The notes beneath the pieces were generated by a model. That model saw only the letters and a program-made list of their open reading frames with translations. It was not told the DNA's origin and searched no databases. Of a stretch of DNA of 64,000 nucleotides, positions 2,505 to 58,678 are shown one piece after another. Origin of the DNA: Minisyncoccia bacterium (GTDB taxonomy: Bacteria; Patescibacteriota; Minisyncoccia; SW-4-49-11); contig JBIKWJ010000001.1 of NCBI GenBank assembly GCA_044356325.1, positions 152,992 to 216,991 on the forward strand, read 5' to 3'. The position numbers and the translations under genes are program-made. Position 1 is the stretch's first letter; each line of letters starts with the position of its first letter.

Positions 2505-2536
2505 TCACTTAATTGTGAATAAGATGAGATACATCG

Positions 2537-2745
2537 TAGATAAGTTGTGAGTTATGTAGAGGGTGACCTTTCAGTCACTTTTGTCCCCCTTTGGAGGGGG
2601 GAGCCTGAAAGGCGGGGGTGGATAAAATACAAATGTAAACTCTATCTACCTCCGGCCTAATGGCCACCTCCTCCCTGCCTACCGCAGGCAGGCAAAGGAG
2701 GACAATTTCTATAACAATTTACAGTTTTTAGGCTAATAATTTACA
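2537..2745 (-). mobile_element. GC-rich MITE-like repeat, copy A (reverse orientation, diverged, one TIR recognisable)
   Basis: About 55% GC in a roughly 30% GC genome. Shares the core cctgcctaccgcaggcagg and ccccc-tttgga-ggggg hairpins and the terminal aagatgagatacatcgtagata with copies at 11841, 28197 and 34291. Confidence 0.6.
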
Positions 2746-2807
2746 GCAACACTTTTTGCCTAAGATATCTTCATCTCATACTAAGTATATACAAAATATC
2801 AAAAATA

Positions 2808-2827: not shown

Positions 2828-2916
2828 GGAAGTGTGGCTGAGCGGTTGAAGGCGGCAGTCTTGAAAACTGTTGTAGGGTTACACCTACCAGAGGTTCGAA
2901 TCCTCTCACTTCCGCA
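2828..2916 (+). tRNA. tRNA-Ser (anticodon UGA)
   Basis: Cloverleaf readable by eye. Acceptor ggaagtg/cacttcc, anticodon loop cuUGAaa, long variable arm, T-loop GGTTCGAATCC. Confidence 0.85.
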
Positions 2917-2922
2917 TAAATC

Positions 2923-2960
2923 CCATATATTAGAATTTATTCTGATATATGGGTTTTTTA
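2923..2960 (+). terminator. Rho-independent terminator after tRNA-Ser
   Basis: Hairpin cccatatat...atatatggg followed by TTTTTT. Confidence 0.55.
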
Positions 2961-3100
2961 TTTGGAGAAGTGAAGGGAGCAATAGCATTGCTCCCGTGGG
3001 GATGAGAAAGTCGCAGCCCGGTGTGAGTTTGTGCTAAGCACAAGGCGAACACAGCGAGACGGGGTCGCGGAAATTTACCGTCAGGAAAATTATCTGTGAC

Positions 3101-3119
3101 CGAATCCTCTCACTTCTGC
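3101..3119 (+). repeat. Duplicated 3' end of tRNA-Ser(UGA), attR-like
   Basis: cgaatcctctcacttcTgc matches the tRNA T-arm/acceptor 3' segment with one mismatch, 184 bp downstream of the intact tRNA. The intervening DNA is GC-rich and hairpin-rich. Confidence 0.6.
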
Positions 3120-3202: not shown

Positions 3203-3230
3203 TGAATAAGATGAGACAGATCGTAGACAA
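3203..3230 (+). repeat. Solo terminal inverted repeat of the GC-rich MITE-like family
   Basis: ttgaataagatgagacagatcgtagacaa matches the element termini, but no element body follows. Confidence 0.45.
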
Positions 3231-8675: not shown

Positions 8676-8688
8676 AATTTTTCATTGG

Positions 8689-8761
8689 TCGGGAAGACAG
8701 GACTCGAACCTGCAGCCCCCTGGTCCCAAACCAGGTGCGCTAGCCATTGCGCCACTTCCCG
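8689..8761 (-). tRNA. tRNA-Pro (anticodon UGG)
   Basis: Reverse complement folds as a cloverleaf. Acceptor cgggaag/cttcccg, anticodon loop uuUGGga, T-loop GGTTCGAGTCC. Confidence 0.85.
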
Positions 8762-11774: not shown

Positions 11775-11840
11775 AATTTTTTATTTTATACTATATCAAT
11801 ATATTAGCATATCATATCATATTGTCAATTAACATTATGA

Positions 11841-12125
11841 AATGAGGAGATCGTAGACAAAAGAGATTATTATACATTACTATCCTACCGGCCGTAGCTT
11901 TGTACAAAAAGTGTCCTCCTTTGCCTGCCTGCGGTAGGCAGGGAGGAGGTGGCCGTCAGGCCGGAGGTGGATAGAGTTCAGGTCTTTATCTTATCCACCC
12001 CCGCCTTTCAGGCTTCCCCCTCCTAAGGGGGACAAAAGTAATAATTCTTTTGTTACGACAATATATGCGACTGTAAGGTCGCCCCTACACAACTCATATA
12101 ATGTCTACGATGTATCTCATCTTAA
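11841..12125 (+). mobile_element. GC-rich MITE-like repeat, copy B (full length, both TIRs)
   Basis: Left end gagatcgtagaca and right end tgtctacgatgtatctc form imperfect TIRs. The body is nearly identical to copy D at 34291-34572. It sits between divergent promoters. Confidence 0.65.
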
Positions 12126-22415: not shown

Positions 22416-22442
22416 AAAAGCCCCTTATGGGGCTTTATTTGG
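22416..22442 (+). terminator. Rho-independent terminator after folD
   Basis: aaagcccc-ttat-ggggcttt followed by atttgg. Overlaps the 3' end of tRNA-Ile on the other strand. Confidence 0.55.
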
Positions 22443-22516
22443 TGCGCATGCCATGACTTGAACATGGGACCTCTACATTATCAGTGTAGCGCTCTAACCA
22501 GCTGAGCTACACGCGC
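22440..22516 (-). tRNA. tRNA-Ile (anticodon GAU), CCA encoded
   Basis: Reverse complement reads GCGCGTG...CTGATAA...GGTTCAAGTCC...CATGCGCACCA. Anticodon loop cuGAUaa. Confidence 0.85.
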
Positions 22517-22561
22517 ATTTGAATATAATTATATCATAAACCTAACCTTTCTGCAAGATAT

Positions 22562-24163
22562 CTATAACATACTGTTACCAATAGGAATTCCTGTTGGTAC
22601 ACTATCAAGTCCCTCCGGAGATACAACAATAATATTATTCCATTTATACCCTAATCCTTCAAATACCGCTGGAGAGGCTACATAGCGTTTTTTTCCATCA
22701 GACATTATATAAACTTCCCCTCTGCCCGAGGCTCTCAGAATTACTCCATCCCGAAAATATACCGCTGGCCCCTGTTGATAAGAATTCCATTCAGCCCCTG
22801 ATACATATACTAAATCTTTATAATTATATTGAGTGTCGAATACTTCTGGACTTGGTATTGGACGCCTTTTCCCCGTTTCCAAAACCTCTATTCCTGTTGG
22901 ATTATCGCGATTAACCAATAATGTCCCATCTGGATAGGGGCGAGATTGCATAATAGGTCCAATTGAATGAGATATTGCAAGAGTCCCATCTGGAATAATA
23001 GTAATATTATTCCACTTATAGCCTAAGGCCTCAAAAGTAACTGGAGATGGAATATGTCTTCTTTGCTGATTACTAATTACATATACATCGGGATTATTCC
23101 GTTCTCTTACCAACATTCCTTCTCTGAATGTAAGAGCTGAAGCTAAAGGATAAGAATCCCACTCGGCACGTGTGACATCTAATACATCTTTCCATTTAAA
23201 ACGAGAATTAAAAACATCAGGATTTACGAGAGGCCTAATACTTCCATTCTCGAGATATCCAACTCCCGTATCTGTTCTTAATAATGATCCATTTGGGAAA
23301 GTTCGAATATTACTATTATCAGGGAATAAGGCTAATTCGGTTGCATTAATACTAATCACATTTTTCCCTCCAATATTACCAGTAGGAGTTTTTATCCCAT
23401 TTTGAATAGTATAAAGACGACCATTATCATCTCGATACAGCGAATTATCATAATATTGCTTCCACTCTTGAGCTCGATTCCGAAGCCAGCTCATATCAAC
23501 CATATTAGTGTCTCCATTTCCAGCTTCTACAGCTCCATGATCAGTAAGTCGAAAGCCGGTATAATTAGAACTGTATGCTTTGGTATAAAAATTCCAAATA
23601 GGTTCAGTCATATAATCTGTAGGGGCAATACTATTGGTTGAACTAAGCCATCCAGATAATTTGGCTAAAGATTGTTTCATAGCTTCCGGTACTGTTGCAT
23701 AGCCACTTCCATAGCGACCAATCAGAGAAACTCCTATACTTTGATAATTAAAATTATCTCCGGTACTATTCACATAAAGATGAGCTCCTCTCACCCCATT
23801 TTGTCCCATTCTCCCCTGATAAATACTCCCATCGCGAGCTATCAGATAATTATACCCTATATCACCCCAACCATTATTACGGGCATGTGTGGTGAATATT
23901 GAACGAATTATTTGTCTTGGGTCAAGGGAGTCACCATTAAAGTCAGCCAAAGCAGTATCATGTAATAATATTCTCTTTATCTGCAAAGTATTATTAGAAT
24001 TTGGTGGCCAATTATTGAGGGTATAGGTATTATCATCTGCTGTTGCCCAAGTATTGCGAGATTGTATATTGGGAGTACTTGCAAAAGTGGGTCGTGGTAA
24101 TATCAATGCTATCAACATTATCATTGGCAATAGTATTGATTGCAAACATAATATCAAATTCAT
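22562..24163 (-). CDS. Secreted N-acetylmuramoyl-L-alanine amidase (Amidase_2/PGRP-like) with three C-terminal ~57-aa repeats
   Basis: 533 aa with a signal peptide. GWGDIGYNYLIARDGSIYQGR is a PGRP/amidase_2 signature. The C-terminal repeats have consensus DG.L...G.VYVI.NG.KR.I.SP.VF...GY.W..V. Confidence 0.6.
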   Translation of the reverse strand: MNLILCLQSILLPMIMLIALILPRPTFASTPNIQSRNTWATADDNTYTLNNWPPNSNNTLQIKRILLHDTALADFNGDSLDPRQIIRSIFTTHARNNGWGDIGYNYLIARDGSIYQGRMGQNGVRGAHLYVNSTGDNFNYQSIGVSLIGRYGSGYATVPEAMKQSLAKLSGWLSSTNSIAPTDYMTEPIWNFYTKAYSSNYTGFRLTDHGAVEAGNGDTNMVDMSWLRNRAQEWKQYYDNSLYRDDNGRLYTIQNGIKTPTGNIGGKNVISINATELALFPDNSNIRTFPNGSLLRTDTGVGYLENGSIRPLVNPDVFNSRFKWKDVLDVTRAEWDSYPLASALTFREGMLVRERNNPDVYVISNQQRRHIPSPVTFEALGYKWNNITIIPDGTLAISHSIGPIMQSRPYPDGTLLVNRDNPTGIEVLETGKRRPIPSPEVFDTQYNYKDLVYVSGAEWNSYQQGPAVYFRDGVILRASGRGEVYIMSDGKKRYVASPAVFEGLGYKWNNIIVVSPEGLDSVPTGIPIGNSML

Positions 24164-24165
24164 AA

Positions 24166-26106
24166 TTAAGGCAAGGGTCCTACTGGAATTGACTGATCAA
24201 TCATAAATCCATATTGTAATGTATCATCAGTAACTACTCCTAGAGCCAACATAGCCTCAGGAGAAAGCCCAGATACACGATTCGTAAATATAGCAGGACC
24301 AGATTCCATAATAGTTGTAACAAGTCTTCTACCATTGGCGGGATTTGTCACCAAAACTTTACGTCCTCGATGCCAATTTTTAGCAGTATTATTAAAATCT
24401 GTACTACGAGTACGTCCTCTCCAGACATCTGTTCTAAACTCATAGACTTCTTGTACAGTACTTCCTGAATTATGAGATTTTGCAGAAGCAGCCACAGTAG
24501 GACTATCTACTCCTCGCTGAGATACAATAAGACTATTCCCATCTTTACCACTATATGCAATAATTTCCCCATTGATAATAACCCAACCTGTATTAGGGTA
24601 ATCTGACACATTAGCAAGTGGTATTCTGTTAGCAGAAGTATCTATATTCTGAGTAAGCGTACTCATAGCCTCATACCATCGCACATAATTCCAACGCATA
24701 GTAATATAATACTTCTCCTCTTCAACACCAAATGGAGCATAGCTCGAATTGATACTTCCTCCTGGACAAGTTAATGCAAAGGCTCCTCCCGTAGTTAATA
24801 GGCCATTTTGTGCTGAGGCTGGAGTTGAAGCTCGGACATAATGATCAGCACTTGTTTCATTACAATCGCGGGCAAGATGCTGTTCACGAGCTGTTCTACC
24901 ACTTGTAGCTGGGATAGCATATCCGTCTAAACTAGCAGCTTGAATATCTGAGAGAGCAGATCCCATAGCATTAGAATTAAACTCATCTTCAGATACTGCA
25001 TTTACATTAGCCCAATTATATCCCCTCGCCGTAAATATTGCTGGACTTGGAATACCTCGCTTTAATCCCCCTTCAATCACATATACTCCTCCTCCAAAAG
25101 ATATCAAATTGCCATCTCTAAATCCAACTCTTCCTGCTCGTGAATATTGATTAATGACACTGTCTGGTAATCTCAGCACAGAACCCCAGTCATAACCTTG
25201 GCTCACAAAGATATTAGGGCTTATGATAGGCTGTAAGTTGCCATTATTATTGACCCGAAACACTGCTCCACTTCTTGCACCGACAAGAGAACCTTCCATA
25301 TATCGTTTCACCGTATTAAAGGCTCCGGATTCAGGAATAATAGATAATTCAAAATCTGTAGCTCGCTTTACTTGTCCCCAATTAAGTCCATAACTCTCAA
25401 AAACAGCAGGAGAAGTAATAGGCTGCCGCACATTATTCTGCATCATAAATACTCCTGTAGCACTAGATATCAATAATCCATCAGGATAGAATTCATTAGC
25501 TCCCTGGGGATAGGTATTAAGATATGCCTCTGAGACCTCAATCAGAGATTCCCAACGATATCTTGCTTGAAATATAAGAGGACTAGGAATATATCTTCTC
25601 TGCCCATTTTTAATCACAAATACTTCCCCTCCTGGTTTTACCAATAAACTTCCATTGGGATGTTTGGCAGCTGTAGTTAAGCCAGGTCCCTGAGGCTGAG
25701 GAGCAAGTTCCGCATCACTTACCGCAATGACATTAGACCATTTATACCCCTTTTGAAGAAAAGTACTCGGAGAGTCAATAGGCAATCTCTGCCCATCAGA
25801 TATTACAAAGACTCCACCTCTATTAGATAATAATGATCCATCTCTATATGTCATTTGTGGACCATTAGGCAGGGCATCAATTTCATTAGGAGTAGTCACT
25901 ACCAAATCCTCCCATCTAAATTGAGACCTCAACATATTAGGAGACTCAATAGGACGCTTTTGTCCATTATCAATATAATAAACTTTGGGGTTATTAGTAG
26001 ATTTTAGCAATATTCCATTAGGAAAGCTTGGACTACTCGCATAACTCATTAATGGGAATGCCCATATCAAAGCAACAGTAATTAAAATTTTATTTGATAT
26101 TTTCAT
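24166..26106 (-). CDS. Secreted protein with six ~57-aa repeats and a C-terminal RlpA-like double-psi beta-barrel domain
   Basis: 646 aa with a signal peptide. The repeats are homologous to those in the adjacent amidase. C-terminal KVLVTNPANGRRLVTTIMESGPAIF..RVSGLSPEAMLALGV resembles the RlpA/3D lytic-transglycosylase fold. Confidence 0.5.
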   Translation of the reverse strand: MKISNKILITVALIWAFPLMSYASSPSFPNGILLKSTNNPKVYYIDNGQKRPIESPNMLRSQFRWEDLVVTTPNEIDALPNGPQMTYRDGSLLSNRGGVFVISDGQRLPIDSPSTFLQKGYKWSNVIAVSDAELAPQPQGPGLTTAAKHPNGSLLVKPGGEVFVIKNGQRRYIPSPLIFQARYRWESLIEVSEAYLNTYPQGANEFYPDGLLISSATGVFMMQNNVRQPITSPAVFESYGLNWGQVKRATDFELSIIPESGAFNTVKRYMEGSLVGARSGAVFRVNNNGNLQPIISPNIFVSQGYDWGSVLRLPDSVINQYSRAGRVGFRDGNLISFGGGVYVIEGGLKRGIPSPAIFTARGYNWANVNAVSEDEFNSNAMGSALSDIQAASLDGYAIPATSGRTAREQHLARDCNETSADHYVRASTPASAQNGLLTTGGAFALTCPGGSINSSYAPFGVEEEKYYITMRWNYVRWYEAMSTLTQNIDTSANRIPLANVSDYPNTGWVIINGEIIAYSGKDGNSLIVSQRGVDSPTVAASAKSHNSGSTVQEVYEFRTDVWRGRTRSTDFNNTAKNWHRGRKVLVTNPANGRRLVTTIMESGPAIFTNRVSGLSPEAMLALGVVTDDTLQYGFMIDQSIPVGPLP

Positions 26107-26155
26107 ATTTTGGATATACTTTATATTATTGAGTATATCATAAAATTATATATTT

Positions 26156-26164
26156 TGATATACT
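26156..26164 (+). promoter_or_regulatory. Extended -10-like TGATATACT upstream of the nitroreductase gene
   Basis: 32 bp upstream of the ATG. Confidence 0.3.
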
Positions 26165-26195
26165 ACAACTGTAATCAAATAATCATAAAACCATA

Positions 26196-26816
26196 ATGAA
26201 ATCTATATTAGAAGCCCTCAATTGGCGATATGCCACCGACAAATTCTTAGATACTCCTATCCCAGAGGATATATTCCATACCATCATAGAGGCAGCGCGT
26301 CTCGCCCCTTCATCTATGAATTTTCAACCATGGAAATATATCTCTATACAATCTCCAGAAATTCGTAATCAAATATTCGAAGCTGGAGGAAAACAAGAAG
26401 CCATAAATGCTCCTACCCTACTCGTACTCACCATACCCAATATTCTCACTGCAGAAAATGTAAATAATGTTGTTCTCGCTGCCGCTAAAGCTCGGAATGC
26501 CGATCCATCTACTCTTGAGGGATATCGTAATATGCTACAAGGATTTGTAGACAGAACAACTCCTGAGAAATTCTTTGATTGGAGCCGTAGACAAGCATAT
26601 ATTTCACTCGGAATGCTGTTACTTGCCGCTGCTCAACTCGAAGTGGATGCAGCCCCTATGGAAGGGTTTGATGCCACGAAAGTAACCGAGATATTAGGTC
26701 TCAAAGATTATACCGCCGTCACCTTGATTGGACTTGGCTACCGCAGCCCTGAAGATGATCATCAAAGCTGGCCAAAAGTCCGATTTGATATGGAGGAAAT
26801 TTTAGAGGTGAGATAG
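26196..26816 (+). CDS. Nitroreductase-family flavoprotein
   Basis: 206 aa. N-terminal RYATDKF...ARLAPSSMNFQPWKY is typical of the NfsB/nitroreductase fold. Confidence 0.75.
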   Translation: MKSILEALNWRYATDKFLDTPIPEDIFHTIIEAARLAPSSMNFQPWKYISIQSPEIRNQIFEAGGKQEAINAPTLLVLTIPNILTAENVNNVVLAAAKARNADPSTLEGYRNMLQGFVDRTTPEKFFDWSRRQAYISLGMLLLAAAQLEVDAAPMEGFDATKVTEILGLKDYTAVTLIGLGYRSPEDDHQSWPKVRFDMEEILEVR

Positions 26817-26823
26817 AACCTAA

Positions 26824-26860
26824 AAAAGAAAGAGCTTATCAAGCTCTTTCTTCTTTTTAT
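26824..26860. terminator. Bidirectional rho-independent terminator
   Basis: agaaagagc-ttatcaa-gctctttct flanked by an A tract and a T tract. Serves the nitroreductase (+) and the tRNA-Ser region (-). Confidence 0.6.
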
Positions 26861-26862
26861 TT

Positions 26863-26889
26863 TGGCGGAGAGAAAGGGATTACGAACCC
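26863..26889 (-). repeat. Duplicated 3' end of tRNA-Ser(GCU) including CCA, attR-like
   Basis: tggcggagagaaagggattacgaaccc matches the tRNA T-arm and acceptor with a 1-nt indel. 171 bp separate it from the intact tRNA; the intervening DNA is GC-rich. Confidence 0.6.
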
Positions 26890-27059
26890 GTCGCAAATGG
26901 GATTTGCTCCCCTTTCCTATTTCGAATCTAAAACTTCCTTCAAGATTTCATACATCGCATGTATGATAGCAAAATCCCCCGTGCAGGAAGGCAGCGAGGG
27001 ATTTATTCCCGAGTGTCGGAAACCGTAGGTGTCCGAGACGGGGTTGGGGGGGGATTTTG

Positions 27060-27147
27060 CGGAGAGAAAGGGATTCGAACCCTTGATAAGTTTTACCCTA
27101 TGCCACGTTAGCAGTGTGGTGCTTTCGACCAGCTCAGCCATCTCTCC
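27060..27147 (-). tRNA. tRNA-Ser (anticodon GCU)
   Basis: Reverse complement reads GGAGAGATGGCTGAGCTGGTCGAAAGC...cuGCUaa...long variable arm...GGTTCGAATCC. CCA is not encoded. Confidence 0.8.
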
Positions 27148-28196: not shown

Positions 28197-28490
28197 AGAA
28201 GAGATCGTAGACAAAAAAGATTACTATATATTATTAGCCTACCGACCATAGCTTATTACAAAAACTGTCCTCCTTTGGAGGAGGTGGCCGTCAGGCCGGA
28301 GGTGGATAGAGTTTAAGTTTGTATTTTATCCACCTCCGTCGCAAATAGGATTTGCTTCTGTGAAACCTCACGGTTTCCCAACCTTCCTTCACGGGAAAAC
28401 TCCCGTTTTCCCGACCCCTTTCCCAGACTTACAGTCTACCTTTCAGGCACCCCCTTCCTGCCTGCGGTAGGCAGGAAGGGGGACAAAAGT
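28197..28490 (+). mobile_element. GC-rich MITE-like repeat, copy C (left TIR only, with a nested ~105-bp insertion and a swapped hairpin module)
   Basis: Collinear with copies B and D, except for an extra segment at 28335-28439 and replacement of the ccccc-tccaaa-ggggg hairpin by ccccc-ttcctgcc-tgcggta-ggcaggaa-ggggg. Confidence 0.55.
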
Positions 28491-34238: not shown

Positions 34239-34290
34239 ATTAAAATAAATTATATCATATATTGACAATTGTTGCAAAGCTTTTTATGAG

Positions 34291-34572
34291 ATGAGGAGAT
34301 CGTAGACAAAAGAAATTATTATACATTACTATCCTACCGGCCGTAGCTTTGTACAAAAATTGTCCTCCTTTGCCTGCCTGCGGTAGGCAGGGAGGAGGTG
34401 GCCGTCAGGCCGGAGGTGGATAGAGTTTAAGTTTGTATTTTATCCACCCCCGCCTTTCAGGCACCCCCTCCAAAGGGGGACAAAAGTAATAATTCTCTTG
34501 TTACTACAATATATGCGACTATAAGGTCGCCCCTACGTAACTCATATAATGTCTACGATGTATCTCATCTTA
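34291..34572 (+). mobile_element. GC-rich MITE-like repeat, copy D (full length, both TIRs)
   Basis: Near-identical to copy B. TIRs are gagatcgtagaca and tgtctacgatgtatctc. It sits between the msrA stop and the NUDIX promoter. Confidence 0.65.
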
Positions 34573-34577
34573 TTCAT

Positions 34578-45938: not shown

Positions 45939-46937
45939 TTAAGGGAGATCTCTAATAGGACCAGTACCTGTTGGCCAGACACAGTTAACATTTATATGGT
46001 AGTTACCATTATAATCACCATAATTATTACAAGTCTCAGTCCCCCCAGGTTGAAATCCTTGTATACTAGAGCCTGGTCCAGCAGGTACTCCCCATACAGT
46101 TGAACAAATAGAACTTATAACTCCAGGGTCAGTACAGGCACCCTCAAAACCAGTTGGACCTCCCGCACAAGTATCCGCATATCCTGAGTAAGCTGTATAA
46201 GCTTGAGTTAATTCACATTTCCATATACCACTTCTCTTAACTGCGCTATAAGCAATGCCTCCACTCTGTGTTGCACCATTACACGATGTCCGGCTTCTAA
46301 GATTGTAAAGTGTATTACATCTAATCTGTGCTTCTGGTTGAGTTAATATTGGTGTTGGAGTTGGAGTTGGTGTTGGTGTTGGAGTTGGTGTTGGAGTTGG
46401 TGTTGGAGTTGGTGTTGGAGTTGGTGTTGGAGTTGGTGTTGGAGTTGGTGTTGGTGGAGTTAAAGAATTATTTCGTGGCATTGTAGTTGATTGCATTGTA
46501 ACTGTATCTTTACCATCTACAGATTTGGCTGTAATAACTACAGTCACTATAGTTCCTGGGCTATTATTATTTACTGAACTACCATCCCCAGCCTTAATAA
46601 AAAATCTAATATCCTCAACGGTAAATACACTAGAATCAGTATAGGCATTACCTGACTTATTGATAATATTGCCAGCTTTTGTATATACTACATTTGCACC
46701 ACTTTGATCTTTAAATGATAATGCACCTGATGCATTAATACTAAGATTCGATGAGGTTCTCAATTCTTTGTCCATCACATTCAAAACAAATTGCACATTA
46801 TCTCTTACATTATCACTTTGTTGAGAATCTCTTTGATATTTGATAATATTAGTAATAGGTTGGGCTACTACCAATACAATAATAGATAATATACCGATTA
46901 CCACTGTTAATTCTGTTAGAGTAAATCCTTTTCTCAT
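45939..46937 (-). CDS. Type IV pilin-like protein with a (TP)n linker and a Cys-rich C-terminal domain
   Basis: Prepilin leader MRKGFTLTELTVVIG is a class III signal. About 25 tandem TP dipeptides. The C-terminal roughly 130 aa contain 10 Cys. Confidence 0.6.
   Translation of the reverse strand: MRKGFTLTELTVVIGILSIIVLVVAQPITNIIKYQRDSQQSDNVRDNVQFVLNVMDKELRTSSNLSINASGALSFKDQSGANVVYTKAGNIINKSGNAYTDSSVFTVEDIRFFIKAGDGSSVNNNSPGTIVTVVITAKSVDGKDTVTMQSTTMPRNNSLTPPTPTPTPTPTPTPTPTPTPTPTPTPTPTPTPTPTPILTQPEAQIRCNTLYNLRSRTSCNGATQSGGIAYSAVKRSGIWKCELTQAYTAYSGYADTCAGGPTGFEGACTDPGVISSICSTVWGVPAGPGSSIQGFQPGGTETCNNYGDYNGNYHINVNCVWPTGTGPIRDLP
46351..46462. repeat. Tandem repeat (ggtgtt/ggagtt units, about 9 x 12 bp) encoding the (TP)n linker
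   Basis: Perfect 6/12-bp periodicity visible in the DNA. Confidence 0.8.
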
Positions 46938-46953
46938 ATATTTAATCCGCAAT

Positions 46954-47478
46954 CTATTTTTTATTAATATCAAATAATTCCATATCTGCTGAATATATTT
47001 TGGTCTTATTTAAATTCAAGTTTCTTACTATAACGGTACTTTTAACTTTTATTCTATCTAGATTAACTGTATCCGATTGTACGGTAATATAGCGATAAAA
47101 TATAGTACCAGCAGTACCCAAAATATAACCATTATTGCCATCTTGTATTAAAGAACAGGTATTATTCCAGGTAGTTGTACTACAAGTTGAAGTTAAGCTC
47201 AAACCATTTTGAATATTCGTTTTATAATCAACTACATATTTACCATCAGCCAATCCAGCATTCCATACTGCCCCTGGGGTAGTGTCATTAAGATTACTTT
47301 GATATATGGCTCTTACTATCTCTAATCCCTCGGACATCAATAAATTAGCAGTATTATCATATTGCTTATCAAACTTAGCTTTAATAATACCTACCTGTAA
47401 ATTTAAAAGTGGAATAAAGGTAATTAATAATATTGATATTGCAACCAATGCACCTACTAATGTGGCTCCTTTTTTCAT
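46954..47478 (-). CDS. Minor pilin-like protein (non-canonical, lacks Glu5)
   Basis: 174 aa. MKKGATLVGALVAISILL hydrophobic N-terminus after a basic leader. Sits inside the pilin gene block. Confidence 0.45.
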   Translation of the reverse strand: MKKGATLVGALVAISILLITFIPLLNLQVGIIKAKFDKQYDNTANLLMSEGLEIVRAIYQSNLNDTTPGAVWNAGLADGKYVVDYKTNIQNGLSLTSTCSTTTWNNTCSLIQDGNNGYILGTAGTIFYRYITVQSDTVNLDRIKVKSTVIVRNLNLNKTKIYSADMELFDINKK

Positions 47479-58601: not shown

Positions 58602-58678
58602 GTACCTATAGCTCAGTTGGATAGAGCGCAGGTTTGCGGAACCTGAGGTCAGAGGTTCGAACCCTCTTAGGTACACCA
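58602..58678 (+). tRNA. tRNA-Arg (anticodon read as GCG), CCA encoded
   Basis: GTACCTATAGCTCAGTTGGATAGAGCGCAGGTuuGCGgaACCTG...GGTTCGAACCC...TAGGTACACCA. The anticodon-loop assignment assumes a 5-bp stem caggt/acctg. Confidence 0.75.

Follow-up and report, generated by a model that had tools for sequence, protein, structure and literature searches.

tRNA genes are classic landing sites of large mobile elements that carry their own integrase, and the rules that govern attL/attR and the T-loop or 3'-end sublocations of such integration were reportedly set out by Reiter et al. in 1989 and Williams in 2002. The insert described here lies behind a tRNA-Ser(GCU) gene in the window (the whole 64-kb stretch of DNA analyzed) and belongs to a family of cassettes found at tRNA genes of related genomes. 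These cassettes resemble integrase-type tRNA elements (prophages, genomic islands, and tyrosine-integrase ICEs) in that the insertion lies in the 3' part of the tRNA, a replacement 3' end keeps the tRNA intact, a partial 3'-end copy starting in the T loop or acceptor stands at the far side, units accumulate in tandem, and relatives either have or lack the insertion precisely. Unlike those elements, the cassette is only ∼175 to 200 bp long, has no open reading frame (ORF) and no integrase nearby, combines a GC-rich three-hairpin core with an extra inverted copy of the tRNA end (A') in a genome of 33% GC, is conserved like the tRNA itself, and has its core embedded in non-tRNA repeats as well. 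An integrase-like footprint is here left by a unit of ∼200 bases that has no coding capacity yet comes with a spare tRNA end, a matching inverted arm, and a core conserved at the level of the tRNA.

Hairpin recombination sites offer a second comparison. The CTX-phi attP hairpin is reportedly used by XerCD (Val et al. in 2005), and in integron attC sites the R'' and R' boxes follow the consensus RYYYAAC/GTTRRRY. Like attC and CTX-phi attP, the cassette has a long imperfect hairpin, predicted only, whose stem (A' plus the tRNA-like arm) reproduces the target, one extra base at a fixed place in one arm, and a branched, variable tip; one end of an integrated CTX-type prophage likewise consists of an inverted arm, a spacer, and a hybrid site. 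The target, however, is a tRNA gene rather than attI or dif, and the attC consensus is absent. The arms (..ATTCGAATCC.. / GGTTCGTAATCC), read by eye, misfit the attC boxes, and no cognate recombinase adjoins.

Small GC-rich or palindromic repeats include REP/BIME, Rickettsia palindromic elements, Correia and BOX elements, and mitochondrial GC clusters. One account of hairpin-forming elements in mitochondrial genomes (PMC2800124) serves as a further small-repeat comparison. The cassette is similarly short, modular, hairpin forming, multicopy, noncoding, prone to nesting, and compositionally distinct in an AT-rich genome. In contrast to these repeats, its arms are tRNA derived and target specific, its direct repeats measure 25 to 75 nt, it replaces the functional tRNA 3' end, and no RAYT or IS200/IS605-type gene was found in the DNA examined around cassettes. 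A reading of the terminal hairpin as IS200/IS605-type or as a TnpB guide was rejected on account of the long direct repeats, the lack of a fixed target motif, and the absence of such a gene.

MITEs share fixed terminal inverted repeats with a parent IS and generate target duplications of 2 to 14 bp; a MITE was rejected here because the arms copy the end of the local tRNA and differ from one tRNA to another, the direct repeats span 25 to 75 nt, and no parent IS was found. CIMEs of streptococcal ICEs measure kilobases and lie next to the known ICE from which they derive. The cassette, like a CIME, is bounded by att-like repeats, lacks a recombinase gene, and presumably moved in trans; unlike a CIME, it has no known parent element. 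The Mauriceville and Varkud retroplasmids of Neurospora give hybrid cDNAs that end in tRNA sequence and then undergo homologous recombination at a tRNA gene. As with the cassette, tRNA 3' sequences border the inserted DNA and its integration depends on homology to a tRNA gene; unlike for the retroplasmids, no reverse transcriptase was seen for the cassette. A primer-binding site for tRNA-primed reverse transcription was considered, since A' of Ser and Asp cassettes starts with TGG opposite CCA, and rejected: the Leu-linked A' complements the genomic trailer CTATAT rather than posttranscriptional CCA, so A' is a copy of DNA and not of mature tRNA, which argues against a tRNA-primed RNA route, and no reverse transcriptase lies nearby. 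A group I intron or split tRNA was rejected because tRNA-Ser(GCU) is continuous and complete and gives no Intron_gpI match; in Patescibacteria, group I introns of tRNA genes are inserted at position 35/36 according to one account (PMC13011429).

The tRNA-Ser(GCU) locus in the window

An intact tRNA-Ser(GCU) gene without encoded CCA occupies 27060 to 27147 on the minus strand, where the original prediction had placed it; ARAGORN and Rfam (56 bits) agree, with one end at 27059/27060 and the other at 27147. Over the aligned part, the gene does not differ from its L105 orthologue (L-numbers denote compared loci outside the window). The discriminator G at 27060 is followed on the minus strand by CAAAATCCCCCCCC... 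The last 25 nt of the gene (27060 to 27084, minus strand), comprising the T arm, the acceptor 3' strand, and the discriminator, are copy 1 of a repeated segment, S. Copy 2, GGGTTCGTAATCCCTTTCTCTCCG plus CCA, lies at 26863 to 26889 on the minus strand and has an 8-nt T loop. A near-exact 27-nt copy of the tRNA 3' end with CCA had been predicted and was found: the duplicate GGGTTCGTAATCCCTTTCTCTCCGCCA (26889 to 26863) differs from the tRNA's own GGGTTCGAATCCCTTTCTCTCCG by a single extra T in the T loop, giving 23 shared nucleotides (24 in copy 2 with the extra T) before CCA. Copy-2 fragments with the identical extra T occur in L049, L105, L111, L115, L117, and L118. Only these 27 nt are tRNA-like, and neither ARAGORN nor Rfam detects a cloverleaf there; as proposed, this distal stretch directly repeats the 3' end of the neighboring tRNA and is not a second, degraded tRNA. 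Copy 2 is most likely the displaced original tRNA 3' end.

Beyond copy 2, an intrinsic terminator (26822 to 26855, minus strand; 12-bp stem and T run) closes the tRNA-cassette transcription unit and is common to the convergent nitroreductase gene (26196 to 26816). The locus is identical across the six assembled contigs fetched that carry it. The interior of the insert is also the end of one contig in the set.

The insert runs from 27059 to 26890 in minus-strand reading. It is GC-rich and includes the predicted plus-strand G8 (a C8 run at 27046 to 27053); its length is 170 nt rather than 171, and it proved to be a composite rather than one piece, made of a hairpin with a nested module, a small hairpin, a Ser(GGA)-type arm, and a core lacking two of three hairpins. 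The long hairpin, a predicted fold of GCAAAATCCCCC (27060 to 27049) with GGGGGATTTTGC (26980 to 26969), spans 26969 to 27060 on the minus strand and encloses module X (27043 to 26977). This nested element, when reverse complemented, shows homology to the middle part of a variant type-1 core and recurs, in either orientation, inside the cassettes of L015, L073, L106, L100, L052, L061, and L034. The hairpin stretch is 96% identical to L063 and occupies the position that the cassette's own terminator hairpin has in other lineages. Next comes a small AT-rich hairpin, TCATACAT-GCG-ATGTATGA (26948 to 26966, minus strand; from sequence and fold), also present in L063 and at the end of L015. Alignment with L063 identifies the linker TGAAGGAAG and an inverted-arm A' remnant (AGATTCGAA) at 26921 to 26942 on the minus strand. 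This remnant is of the Ser(GGA) type and therefore no longer matches tRNA-Ser(GCU); its complementarity to copy 1 and copy 2 is not significant (equaled by 42/300 and 123/300 shuffles).

The remainder is a shortened type-1 core (26890 to 26917, minus strand) consisting of GGAAAGGGG, A, and the terminal hairpin GCAAATCCCATTTGC plus GAC, recognized by our covariance model R1, which matches 26890 to 26987 with an E value of 3.3e-5. Compared with the full cores of L105 and L049, it lacks hairpins 1 and 2 (∼55 nt). Over 181 nt, the window copy and the Ser(GGA) cassette of L063 are 92% identical. The insert is decayed and chimeric: a Ser(GCU) cassette would have recombined with a Ser(GGA)-type cassette, losing two core hairpins and its own terminator. 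With that terminator gone, the whole insert is a tRNA trailer ended by the old terminator, and because this only terminator comes after copy 2, the insert must be cotranscribed with the tRNA.

A cassette behind Ser, Leu, and Asp tRNA genes

Partial duplicates downstream of other tRNA genes, which the original prediction had suggested looking for, were found behind Ser, Leu, and Asp tRNAs in related genomes. The tRNA-linked layout is always the same: the tRNA 3' end, a hairpin, the inverted 3'-end copy A', the core, and a second direct copy. This S-hairpin-A'-core-S order was seen behind tRNA-Ser(GCU), -Ser(GGA), -Ser(CGA), -Leu(GAG), and -Asp. A full cassette of about 175 to 200 bp, which contains no genes, consists of the remaining tRNA 3' end (often with CCA), a hairpin/terminator, A', an 82-nt core, and the T-arm start. 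A' repeats the T arm, acceptor strand, and trailer of the tRNA in inverted orientation and is complementary to the cognate tRNA end in all 11 nonwindow elements (11/11), with at most 4/300 shuffles doing equally well. Direct repeats flank the insert, with an intact tRNA at one end, in the window and in L105, L111, L115, L117, L118, L036, L073, L106, L064, L015, L063, and L052. The repeat begins in or beside the T loop (Ser and Leu) or in the acceptor strand (Asp), and one arm has a single extra base at a fixed place (T for Ser(GCU), G for Ser(GGA)). Tandem arrays also occur: in L064, a type-2 cassette precedes a type-1 cassette and both have a tRNA fragment of their own, and L015 has one cassette followed by the start of a second. 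This cassette family is apparently undescribed.

The Ser(GCU) site is occupied in L115, L117, L118, L111, L105, and the window and empty in L119 and L120, with boundaries exactly at the repeat. An identical trailer and NUDIX gene follow copy 2 in L115 and the tRNA in L119; copy 1 of L115 is followed by CCA and a hairpin, which the empty relative L119 lacks at the same position. At least four lineages have an element at this Ser(GCU) site, and three assemblies have one behind Leu(GAG). Among four occupied lineages, identity reaches 78 to 82 of 82 positions in the core, 27 to 30 of 30 in A', and 90 to 91 of 91 in the tRNA, while the downstream flank is ∼35% identical, i.e., unalignable. Such conservation of the whole unit at the tRNA level could reflect selection for function rather than recent spread. 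In L118, both repeats are 75 nt long, include the whole terminator, are almost identical, and are of the host type; an in-place duplication or gene conversion fits them as well as import does. All of the empty sites could be secondary losses through recombination between the repeats, so the change may be loss or gain.

A second tRNA gene in the window, tRNA-Ser(UGA) (2828 to 2915, plus strand; ARAGORN and Rfam), is likewise intact without encoded CCA and is followed by its own terminator hairpin (2918 to 2959, plus strand). Behind it lie a type-2 element (2966 to 3099, plus strand), composed of an inverted acceptor-strand copy (AGAAGTGAAGGGA), a nested hairpin (2975 to 2995), and the core GTCGCAGCCCGGTGTGAGTTT...AAAATTATCTGTGA, and then a partial direct copy of the tRNA 3' end, CCGAATCCTCTCACTTCTGC (3100 to 3119, plus strand), that begins inside the T loop. 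The type-2 element is 83% identical to the element behind tRNA-Ser(CGA) in L064. The original prediction saw the same scar at both tRNA-Ser genes. The layout is indeed the same; however, the cores belong to unrelated families (types 1 and 2), and no sequence is shared between the Ser(GCU) and Ser(UGA) inserts. Nor does the term scar suit the unit, which related genomes keep in full and as conserved as the tRNA between unalignable flanks, at a polymorphic site.

The type-1 core and its nested copies

The conserved, GC-rich, three-hairpin type-1 core of 82 nt is closed by the terminal hairpin GCAAATCCYATTTGC-GAC. An 18-nt pattern for this hairpin, run over 596 Gb, gave 41 matches within cores, from about 12 assemblies of Paceibacteria (Minisyncoccia, CPR), and 65 unrelated matches, with ∼70 expected by chance; nhmmer found 43 cores. 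Nine of the 41 cores are linked to tRNAs, behind four Ser isoacceptors and Leu, and a tenth, diverged copy lies behind tRNA-Asp; a metagenome scan for further tRNA-linked copies yielded three loci only. The other 32 are nested in a second repeat family, which has neither tRNA-derived arms nor long flanking repeats, and no tRNA-like flanking repeats were found around these 32 cores. The core therefore also moves, or persists, in another way. As nested, modular, short GC-rich hairpin units in at least 41 copies from about 12 assemblies, the cores resemble intergenic repeats of the REP/BIME or RPE type.

One such nested copy lies in the window: a complete type-1b element (28338 to 28438, minus strand), made of the small hairpin TAGACTGTAAGTCT and an 88-nt three-hairpin core ending in GCAAATCCTATTTGCGAC, that R1 matches with 109 bits (E = 3e-29). 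It sits within repeat copy C (28198 to 28490) of the ∼300-bp R300 family, is missing at the same position in R300 copies A, B, and D, and has an orthologue in L105. The original prediction had matched the end of the insert to this nested piece and tied the insert to the GC-rich repeats on that basis. Both points stand: GCAAATCCCATTTGCGAC (26890 to 26907) matches GCAAATCCTATTTGCGAC (28338 to 28355), and the shared end is the conserved terminal hairpin of the core nested in copy C. Two hairpin matches occur in the window, versus 0.07 expected, and none of 100 shuffles reached two. R1 finds exactly two places in the window, the nested element (E = 3e-29) and the insert (E = 3e-5).

Origin of the cassette

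We consider it probable that a small, gene-less, nonautonomous insertion cassette, specific to a clade of the ultra-small Paceibacteria, is represented here by a recombinant copy in decay. Such a cassette would enter by recombining within the stretch that it has in common with the tRNA gene, which runs from the T loop to the 3' end. The tRNA would be kept intact, finished by cassette DNA (copy 1), and its former 3' end would be pushed downstream as a partial, drifting copy 2, although which copy arrived with the cassette is something we infer. Repeated events would build tandem cassettes, and recombination of copy 1 with copy 2 would remove a cassette precisely. Either a site-specific recombinase supplied in trans could be at work, possibly on single-stranded DNA folded so that A' pairs with the tRNA-like arm, or exchange could be driven by homology after DNA uptake. 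The expected circle or attP junction would read ...GCAAATCCCATTTGCGAC-GGGTTCGT|AATCCCTTTCTCTCCG..., and an empty site would join the tRNA straight to ...CCGCCAAAATAAAAAG. The predicted DNA fold of both strands is a closed branched hairpin (z = −2.8 and −3.9; a prediction only). A bolder version, which we consider rather unlikely, is a protein-less mobile class in which A' would fold on the tRNA-like arm to mimic a tRNA 3' end, as single-stranded DNA or a guide-like transcript, and be exchanged with the real gene by a host recombinase or by the recombination machinery working on environmental DNA after uptake; a ∼200-nt element of this kind would home to tRNA ends, which are the genome's most conserved sequences, add CCA and a terminator, and spread between species.

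Genes for mobility were sought around the cassettes. The 170- to 200-bp unit has no room for an ORF, and the window contains no integrase, transposase, or reverse transcriptase (Pfam on called genes, ∼1 to 36.8 kb and 39.4 to 60.6 kb). Among the loci examined, no integrase, transposase, or reverse transcriptase ORF recurs beside other copies; neither these loci nor the window has a RAYT/TnpA(REP) or IS200/IS605 transposase, and no IntI or Xer gene adjoins any copy. An associated protein was rejected as well, the ORFs clustered from 36 loci being housekeeping genes, toxins, and RhuM, none of them recurrent at the elements. No free or circular form turned up in the viral, phage, and plasmid sequences searched. 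Phage or plasmid origin was dismissed: an exact-pattern scan of viral contigs gave two chance matches in coding DNA, and blastn against phage and plasmid collections was empty.

The unit might instead be a structured noncoding RNA family downstream of class II tRNA genes, in which A' and the tRNA-like 3' fragment close the three-hairpin core and which is kept for an RNA function (tRNA-end mimicry, processing, or regulation), the window copy being a broken gene. This reading can be compatible with a mobile origin. It accords with tRNA-level conservation of the whole unit between unalignable flanks, with the recurrence at one Ser(GCU) site and behind Leu(GAG), and with cotranscription in the window, where the only terminator follows copy 2. 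The hairpin loops are of the GNRA type (GGGA and GTGA), one-sided stem changes are mostly G-U on the tRNA-sense strand (11 cells versus ∼1 A-C), and a three-way type-2 alignment has one fully covarying hairpin plus one compensatory change. Against it, covariation in type 1 is minimal, a single pair with double changes while 95% of cells are paired, and is uninformative because copies are 85 to 100% identical. No Rfam family matches either core: Rfam 15 at gathering score returns tRNA only, and at E ≤ 1 to 10 gives nothing credible in window regions, L105, or L064. The unit has no internal promoter-like site and in most lineages is cut off from the tRNA by a terminator hairpin, and the RNA minimum-energy fold of a full unit (z = −1.7) differs from the closed structure. 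For A', copy 2 is mostly a poorer pairing partner than the functional tRNA end is, and the insertion of module X in either orientation is DNA-level behavior. Finally, two related lineages have an empty site and the window copy is broken, so the element is dispensable. On balance, we regard an RNA gene as unlikely.

Two other kinds of event could mimic an insertion cassette. A large prophage or genomic island might have integrated in the tRNA and been mostly deleted, leaving attL, attR, and ∼170 bp as an inert scar, and integrase-mediated integration does classically leave its mark as an intact tRNA on one side and a directly repeated 3' end. Yet all occupied sites, across many lineages and six tRNA species, have the same short gene-less unit. 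Its conservation goes far beyond that of neutral DNA, its core is present ∼30 times away from tRNAs, and it was found in none of the phages and plasmids searched, which leaves this origin very improbable. A tandemly duplicated second tRNA-Ser gene whose 5' two-thirds decayed or was overwritten could account for the duplicated stretch of L118, 75 nt with the terminator, as tandem gene duplication would give. We give it hardly any credence: no D, anticodon, or variable arm remnant precedes copy 2 in any lineage, the conserved core standing there instead; neither ARAGORN nor Rfam, even at E ≤ 10, has a match at this place; and the same structure, with cognate arms, occurs at unrelated tRNAs.

If mobile, the nonautonomous cassette would be the smallest known tRNA-targeting element and would prompt one to ask which enzyme of its host it uses, in bacteria whose genomes are ∼1 Mb and that rely on DNA uptake. 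If it is kept for an RNA or DNA function, the Candidate Phyla Radiation would have an unrecognized conserved element linked to Ser and Leu tRNAs. Cassettes alter which tRNA genes encode CCA, and their repeats break or mis-join assemblies. A 1526-amino-acid helicase gene that replaces the tRNA locus in L114 was rejected as a partner, being promiscuous, found in varied contexts, and without a link to the cassette. Cassettes can also promote rearrangements, as in L114 and L116.

The tRNA-Ser(GCU) insert and its site in related genomes

The originally predicted tRNA-Ser(GCU) is confirmed as intact by both ARAGORN and Rfam (27059/27060-27147, minus strand), with its discriminator G at 27060. On the same strand it is followed by a GC-rich insert of 170 nt (27059-26890; 171 bp in the original prediction), whose first bases, CAAAATCCCCCCCC, are the G8 run noted there; by a distal 27-mer, GGGTTCGTAATCCCTTTCTCTCCGCCA (26889-26863); and by a terminator with a 12-bp stem (26822-26855). 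The 27-mer comprises the T arm (with an extra T in the loop), acceptor 3' strand, and discriminator of tRNA-Ser(GCU), then CCA; the gene's own copy continues CAA instead, bearing out the difference first reported. A tRNA pseudogene as the identity of this distal segment was ruled out by ARAGORN and Rfam. Within the window, only this gene (27060-27147) and tRNA-Ser(UGA) (2828-2915), both carriers of such an insert, lack an encoded CCA, which is present in the Pro, Ile, and Arg genes (8686-8761, 22440-22516, and 58602-58678); in other lineages, CCA is present in the Ser(GCU) copy on the cassette side.

The window sits in a 252.8-kb metagenome contig (JGI 3300042364, ~33% GC). Of 12 contigs read, the 6 fetched that carry the neighboring nitroreductase gene, convergent with the tRNA, are identical across the tRNA-Ser(GCU) locus, and one stops within the insert. 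An independent assembly of the same strain (L003, an SRR12658719 contig of 4618 bp equivalent to window 22471-27088) breaks off within the tRNA, 29 nt short of the insert start; because it ends there, the repeats of these units may fragment short-read assemblies.

We refer to the gene-less unit of ~175-200 bp behind tRNA genes as a cassette and to its GC-rich hairpin part as the core. Syntenic loci (L numbers denote loci or contigs of related assemblies) were fetched via homologues of the nitroreductase, from 100% down to 72% amino acid identity, giving empty comparators for the Ser(GCU) site only. This site is occupied in the window (nitroreductase, 100%), L115 (91%), L117 (80%; the lineage of L105), L118 (72%), and L111/L049 (no nitroreductase value) and empty in L120 (77%) and L119 (74%). 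In L119 the tRNA runs into CATTATAAAATCTTAAAATTATG and then a NUDIX gene; this trailer and gene recur in L115, where they lie behind the distal copy. The proximal copy of L115 continues into CCA and a hairpin, AAAATTAAGAATAGG.ATAATATCCC.., common to L105, L111, L117, and L064. In L120, tRNA-CCA is followed by the host terminator AAATTAAAAATAGGAGT...ACTCCTATTTTTAATTT and the nitroreductase end; the hairpin behind the distal copy of L111 is of this host type, also found in L118. Both copies in L118 span 75 nt, with all of the terminator included, and match at 74/75 positions. These comparisons show a defined unit with precise presence or absence, and they fit an incoming cassette that supplies the proximal copy. 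The empty sites could also be secondary losses through recombination between the two copies.

Four occupied lineages were compared for conservation. Identical positions number 90-91/91 in the tRNA, 33-36/38 in the first hairpin (5' half invariant, 3' half variable), 27-30/30 in the inverted arm, 78-82/82 in the core, and about 25-26/27 in the distal copy; the next 60 nt are ~35% identical and unalignable. Neutral decay of a scar, as the original prediction termed the insert, is excluded for these four lineages, and conservation of the unit must reflect either selection or recent spread.

In a 96% relative (L114, CAZPCB010000001.1, 3621-6621), tRNA-Ser(GCU) and the cassette are absent from the syntenic place. 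Similarity stops right behind ..TTTATTTTGGC, where the distal copy ends in CCA. Beyond it come unique GC-rich DNA (~190 nt) and a gene for a 1526-amino-acid helicase, an arrangement that suggests a rearrangement or insertion via the cassette repeat. The protein (L114 3856-6621, minus strand; L121 6001-10662) combines an SF1 helicase, a Vsr-like nuclease, and a Top1 zinc ribbon. Its relatives are 60-95% identical, lie very frequently on ~5 kb contigs, and come from CPR bacteria, DPANN archaea, Elusimicrobia, WOR-3, Zixibacteria, and Pedobacter; the L121 copy lies among plasmid- or phage-like genes, adjoining a reverse transcriptase. The gene looks like a promiscuous single-gene mobile element.

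Cassette architecture and the type-1 core family

Behind tRNA genes the order is constant: the tRNA 3' segment S (T arm, acceptor strand, and trailer), a terminator-like hairpin, an inverted copy of S of 15-30 nt (A'), the core, and S again, direct and degenerate. A' varies by tRNA, reading ..AAAAAGGGATTCGAATCC with Ser(GCU), ..AGAAATTCGAACTC with Ser(GGA), ..AAGAAAGTGGACTTGA with Leu, and TGGCGGGGACGAG with Asp. Its complementarity to the functional tRNA end is significant in 11/11 elements outside the window (matched by at most 4 of 300 shuffles), and this end is usually a better partner than the distal copy. The defect of the distal copy recurs directly 3' of TTCG (+T in Ser(GCU), +G in Ser(GGA), and G to T in L064 and L032). 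The Leu-linked A' is also complementary to the genomic trailer CTATAT, not CCA, and so copies DNA, not mature tRNA. The Asp arm TGGCGGGGACGAG of L052 pairs with the 3' end including CCA at 12/13 positions, and its direct repeat begins in the acceptor strand, not the T loop. In the single-stranded DNA fold predicted for a full unit, A' closes on distal S and encloses the three core hairpins, whichever strand is folded (z = -2.8, -3.9); the other structures described here are likewise predicted. In the terminator-like hairpin, the 5' half (AAAATTAAGAATAGGGATAATATCCC) hardly varies among L105, L111, L115, L117, and L064 (one base off in L115); the 3' half is variable and partly unpaired, even between the otherwise almost identical L105 and L117.

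There are two unrelated core families, types 1 and 2. A scan for the type-1 pattern GCAAATCCNATTTGCGAC in one genome per species (596 Gb, two strands) gave at least 106 matches in at least 100 stretches. Among the matches listed, 65 fall in unrelated taxa, mostly in coding DNA, against a chance expectation of ~70 (17 fixed bases), and at least 41 fall in about a dozen Paceibacteria-type assemblies, all with one common preceding sequence. These relatives are labeled Paceibacteria, Parcubacteria, or Minisyncoccia, and the family sample is small (~12 assemblies, mostly 8-kb pieces). The core reads GGGAAGGGGTC, hairpin GGGAAA(A)C-GGGA-G(T)TTTCCC, GTGGAGGAAGG.., hairpin GAAACC-GTGA/GAGT-GGTTTC, A(C)AGGA, hairpin GCAAAT-CCY-ATTTGC, GAC. 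In the DNA examined, a profile search gave 43 type-1 cores, and a covariance model built from this core matched exactly two places in the window: a nested piece in copy C of a ~300-bp repeat, R300 (28338-28425; E=3e-29), and the tRNA-Ser(GCU) insert (26890-26987; E=3e-5). The match noted originally between these two places holds, with GCAAATCC(C/T)ATTTGCGAC present twice in the window against 0.07 expected; the insert's hairpin is the end of the conserved core.

Directly downstream of 32 of the 41 listed cores lies a GGNGGAGG(T)GGA-type sequence, and these 32 are embedded in R300-like composite repeats that are rich in GC; their flanks showed no long repeats, direct or inverted. The other 9/41 run into a piece of tRNA 3' end, with the cognate gene 150-250 nt upstream wherever enough DNA is present: Ser(GCU) in L105, L049/L111/L112, and L113; Ser(GGA) in L015 and L063; Ser(CGA) in L064; and Leu(GAG) in L036, L073, and L106. 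The L032 core has a Ser-type fragment and no tRNA within reach. One further tRNA-linked core, the tenth and more diverged than the rest, lies behind the class I tRNA-Asp of L052 (655-900). Downstream partial duplicates, sought originally at other tRNA genes, are found in relatives behind Ser(GCU), Ser(GGA), Ser(CGA), Leu(GAG), and Asp; among 25 tRNA genes, a sample biased because loci were picked by motif, they follow 9/9 class II (Ser, Leu) versus 1/16 class I tRNAs (Asp only).

Recombinant, tandem, and type-2 cassettes

The first ~135 nt of the window insert match the Ser(GGA) cassette of L063 (92% over a 181-nt alignment including the last 29 nt of the tRNA); the nitroreductases of the L063 assembly and the window share 96% identity. 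This stretch holds the hairpin GCAAAATCCCCC/GGGGGATTTTGC around module X (27043-26977), a nested element related to the core that other cassettes carry in one orientation or the other, then a small hairpin, TGAAGGAAG, and the arm AGATTCGAA. The arm is of Ser(GGA) type and has lost its match to tRNA-Ser(GCU), and core hairpins 1 and 2 are missing. The window copy is a recombinant wreck. The cassette's own terminator is also absent; therefore, the tRNA, insert, and old 3' end make up a single transcription unit that stops at the old terminator.

Behind tRNA-Ser(CGA) of L064 come a terminator and a type-2 GC-rich core with CCGAATCTCTTTCTCTCCGCA at its end; the usual hairpin, A', and core of a type-1 cassette then precede a third fragment of tRNA. 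L015 carries a complete type-1 unit and the start of a second of the L063 kind. Such tandems are the pattern that repeated integration at a tRNA gives.

Behind tRNA-Ser(UGA) lie its own terminator, an inverted acceptor-strand copy, a nested hairpin, a type-2 core, and CCGAATCCTCTCACTTCTGC. The "same scar" described at the two tRNA-Ser genes thus stands as a common layout; the inserts have no sequence in common. This type-2 element is 83% identical to that of L064, and a three-way alignment contains one fully covarying hairpin (GTGCTAAGCAC / CCCTGAAAGGG / GTATGAAGTAC), a compensatory change in a second helix, and G-T wobbles in the last hairpin, on the sense strand. An orphan type-2 element in L116 (4420-4530, minus strand) ends in a Ser-type fragment, CCGAATCCCTTTCTCTCCGCCC, and adjoins no tRNA gene; a Ser(GCU) gene lies ~800 nt away on the opposite strand.

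R300 repeats occur at 2516-2797 (minus strand) and at 11819-12124, 28198-28490, and 34246-34576 (plus strand). They span ~280-330 bp, with terminal inverted repeats of 25-27 bp (TTATGAGATGAGGAGATCGTAGACA) and GGAGG/CCTCC-rich hairpin modules, such as CCTGCCTGCGGTAGGCAGG, that shift position from copy to copy; pieces recur in further Paceibacteria assemblies. One copy lies upstream of tRNA-Ser(UGA), ending 30 nt from it; a solo terminal repeat (3203-3229) lies 84 nt past the partial copy of this tRNA. A tandem 12-nt repeat, (TGGTGTTGGAGT)n, occupies 46311-46468 within an open reading frame (45939-46973, minus strand) for which no exact protein record exists.

Proposed routes of integration

The cassettes form a multi-copy family with target-specific arms, direct repeats of 25-75 nt, and tandem arrays, with precise occupancy differences, and cassettes of different tRNAs have recombined with one another. 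Most likely, a cassette would integrate via recombination inside the segment common to it and the tRNA gene. Integrase-borne elements do the same at T loops and 3' ends; for the cassette, the enzyme would be supplied in trans. No integrase, transposase, or reverse transcriptase was called in ~1-36.8 kb and 39.4-60.6 kb of the window, no recurrent neighboring protein was found at cassettes, and the cassette was not found in viral, phage, and plasmid collections. The inverted arm would have no role in a lambda-type double-stranded att site and would precisely suit a folded single-strand site such as integron attC or CTX-phi attP; an integrated CTX-type element likewise has an end composed of an inverted arm, a spacer, and a hybrid site. 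Alternatively, there would be no dedicated enzyme, and DNA taken up from a relative would enter by homologous exchange, with the invariant tRNA as left arm and the distal tRNA fragment as right arm; type IV pilus genes are encoded in the window.

No Rfam family matches the cassette, and no description of it was found in literature searches. It is not a tRNA intron of the type reported in Patescibacteria. The cassette may have a functional RNA role, which would need read-through or processing and can coexist with mobility; the predicted minimum-energy RNA fold of the full unit differs from the closed single-stranded DNA fold (z = -1.7).
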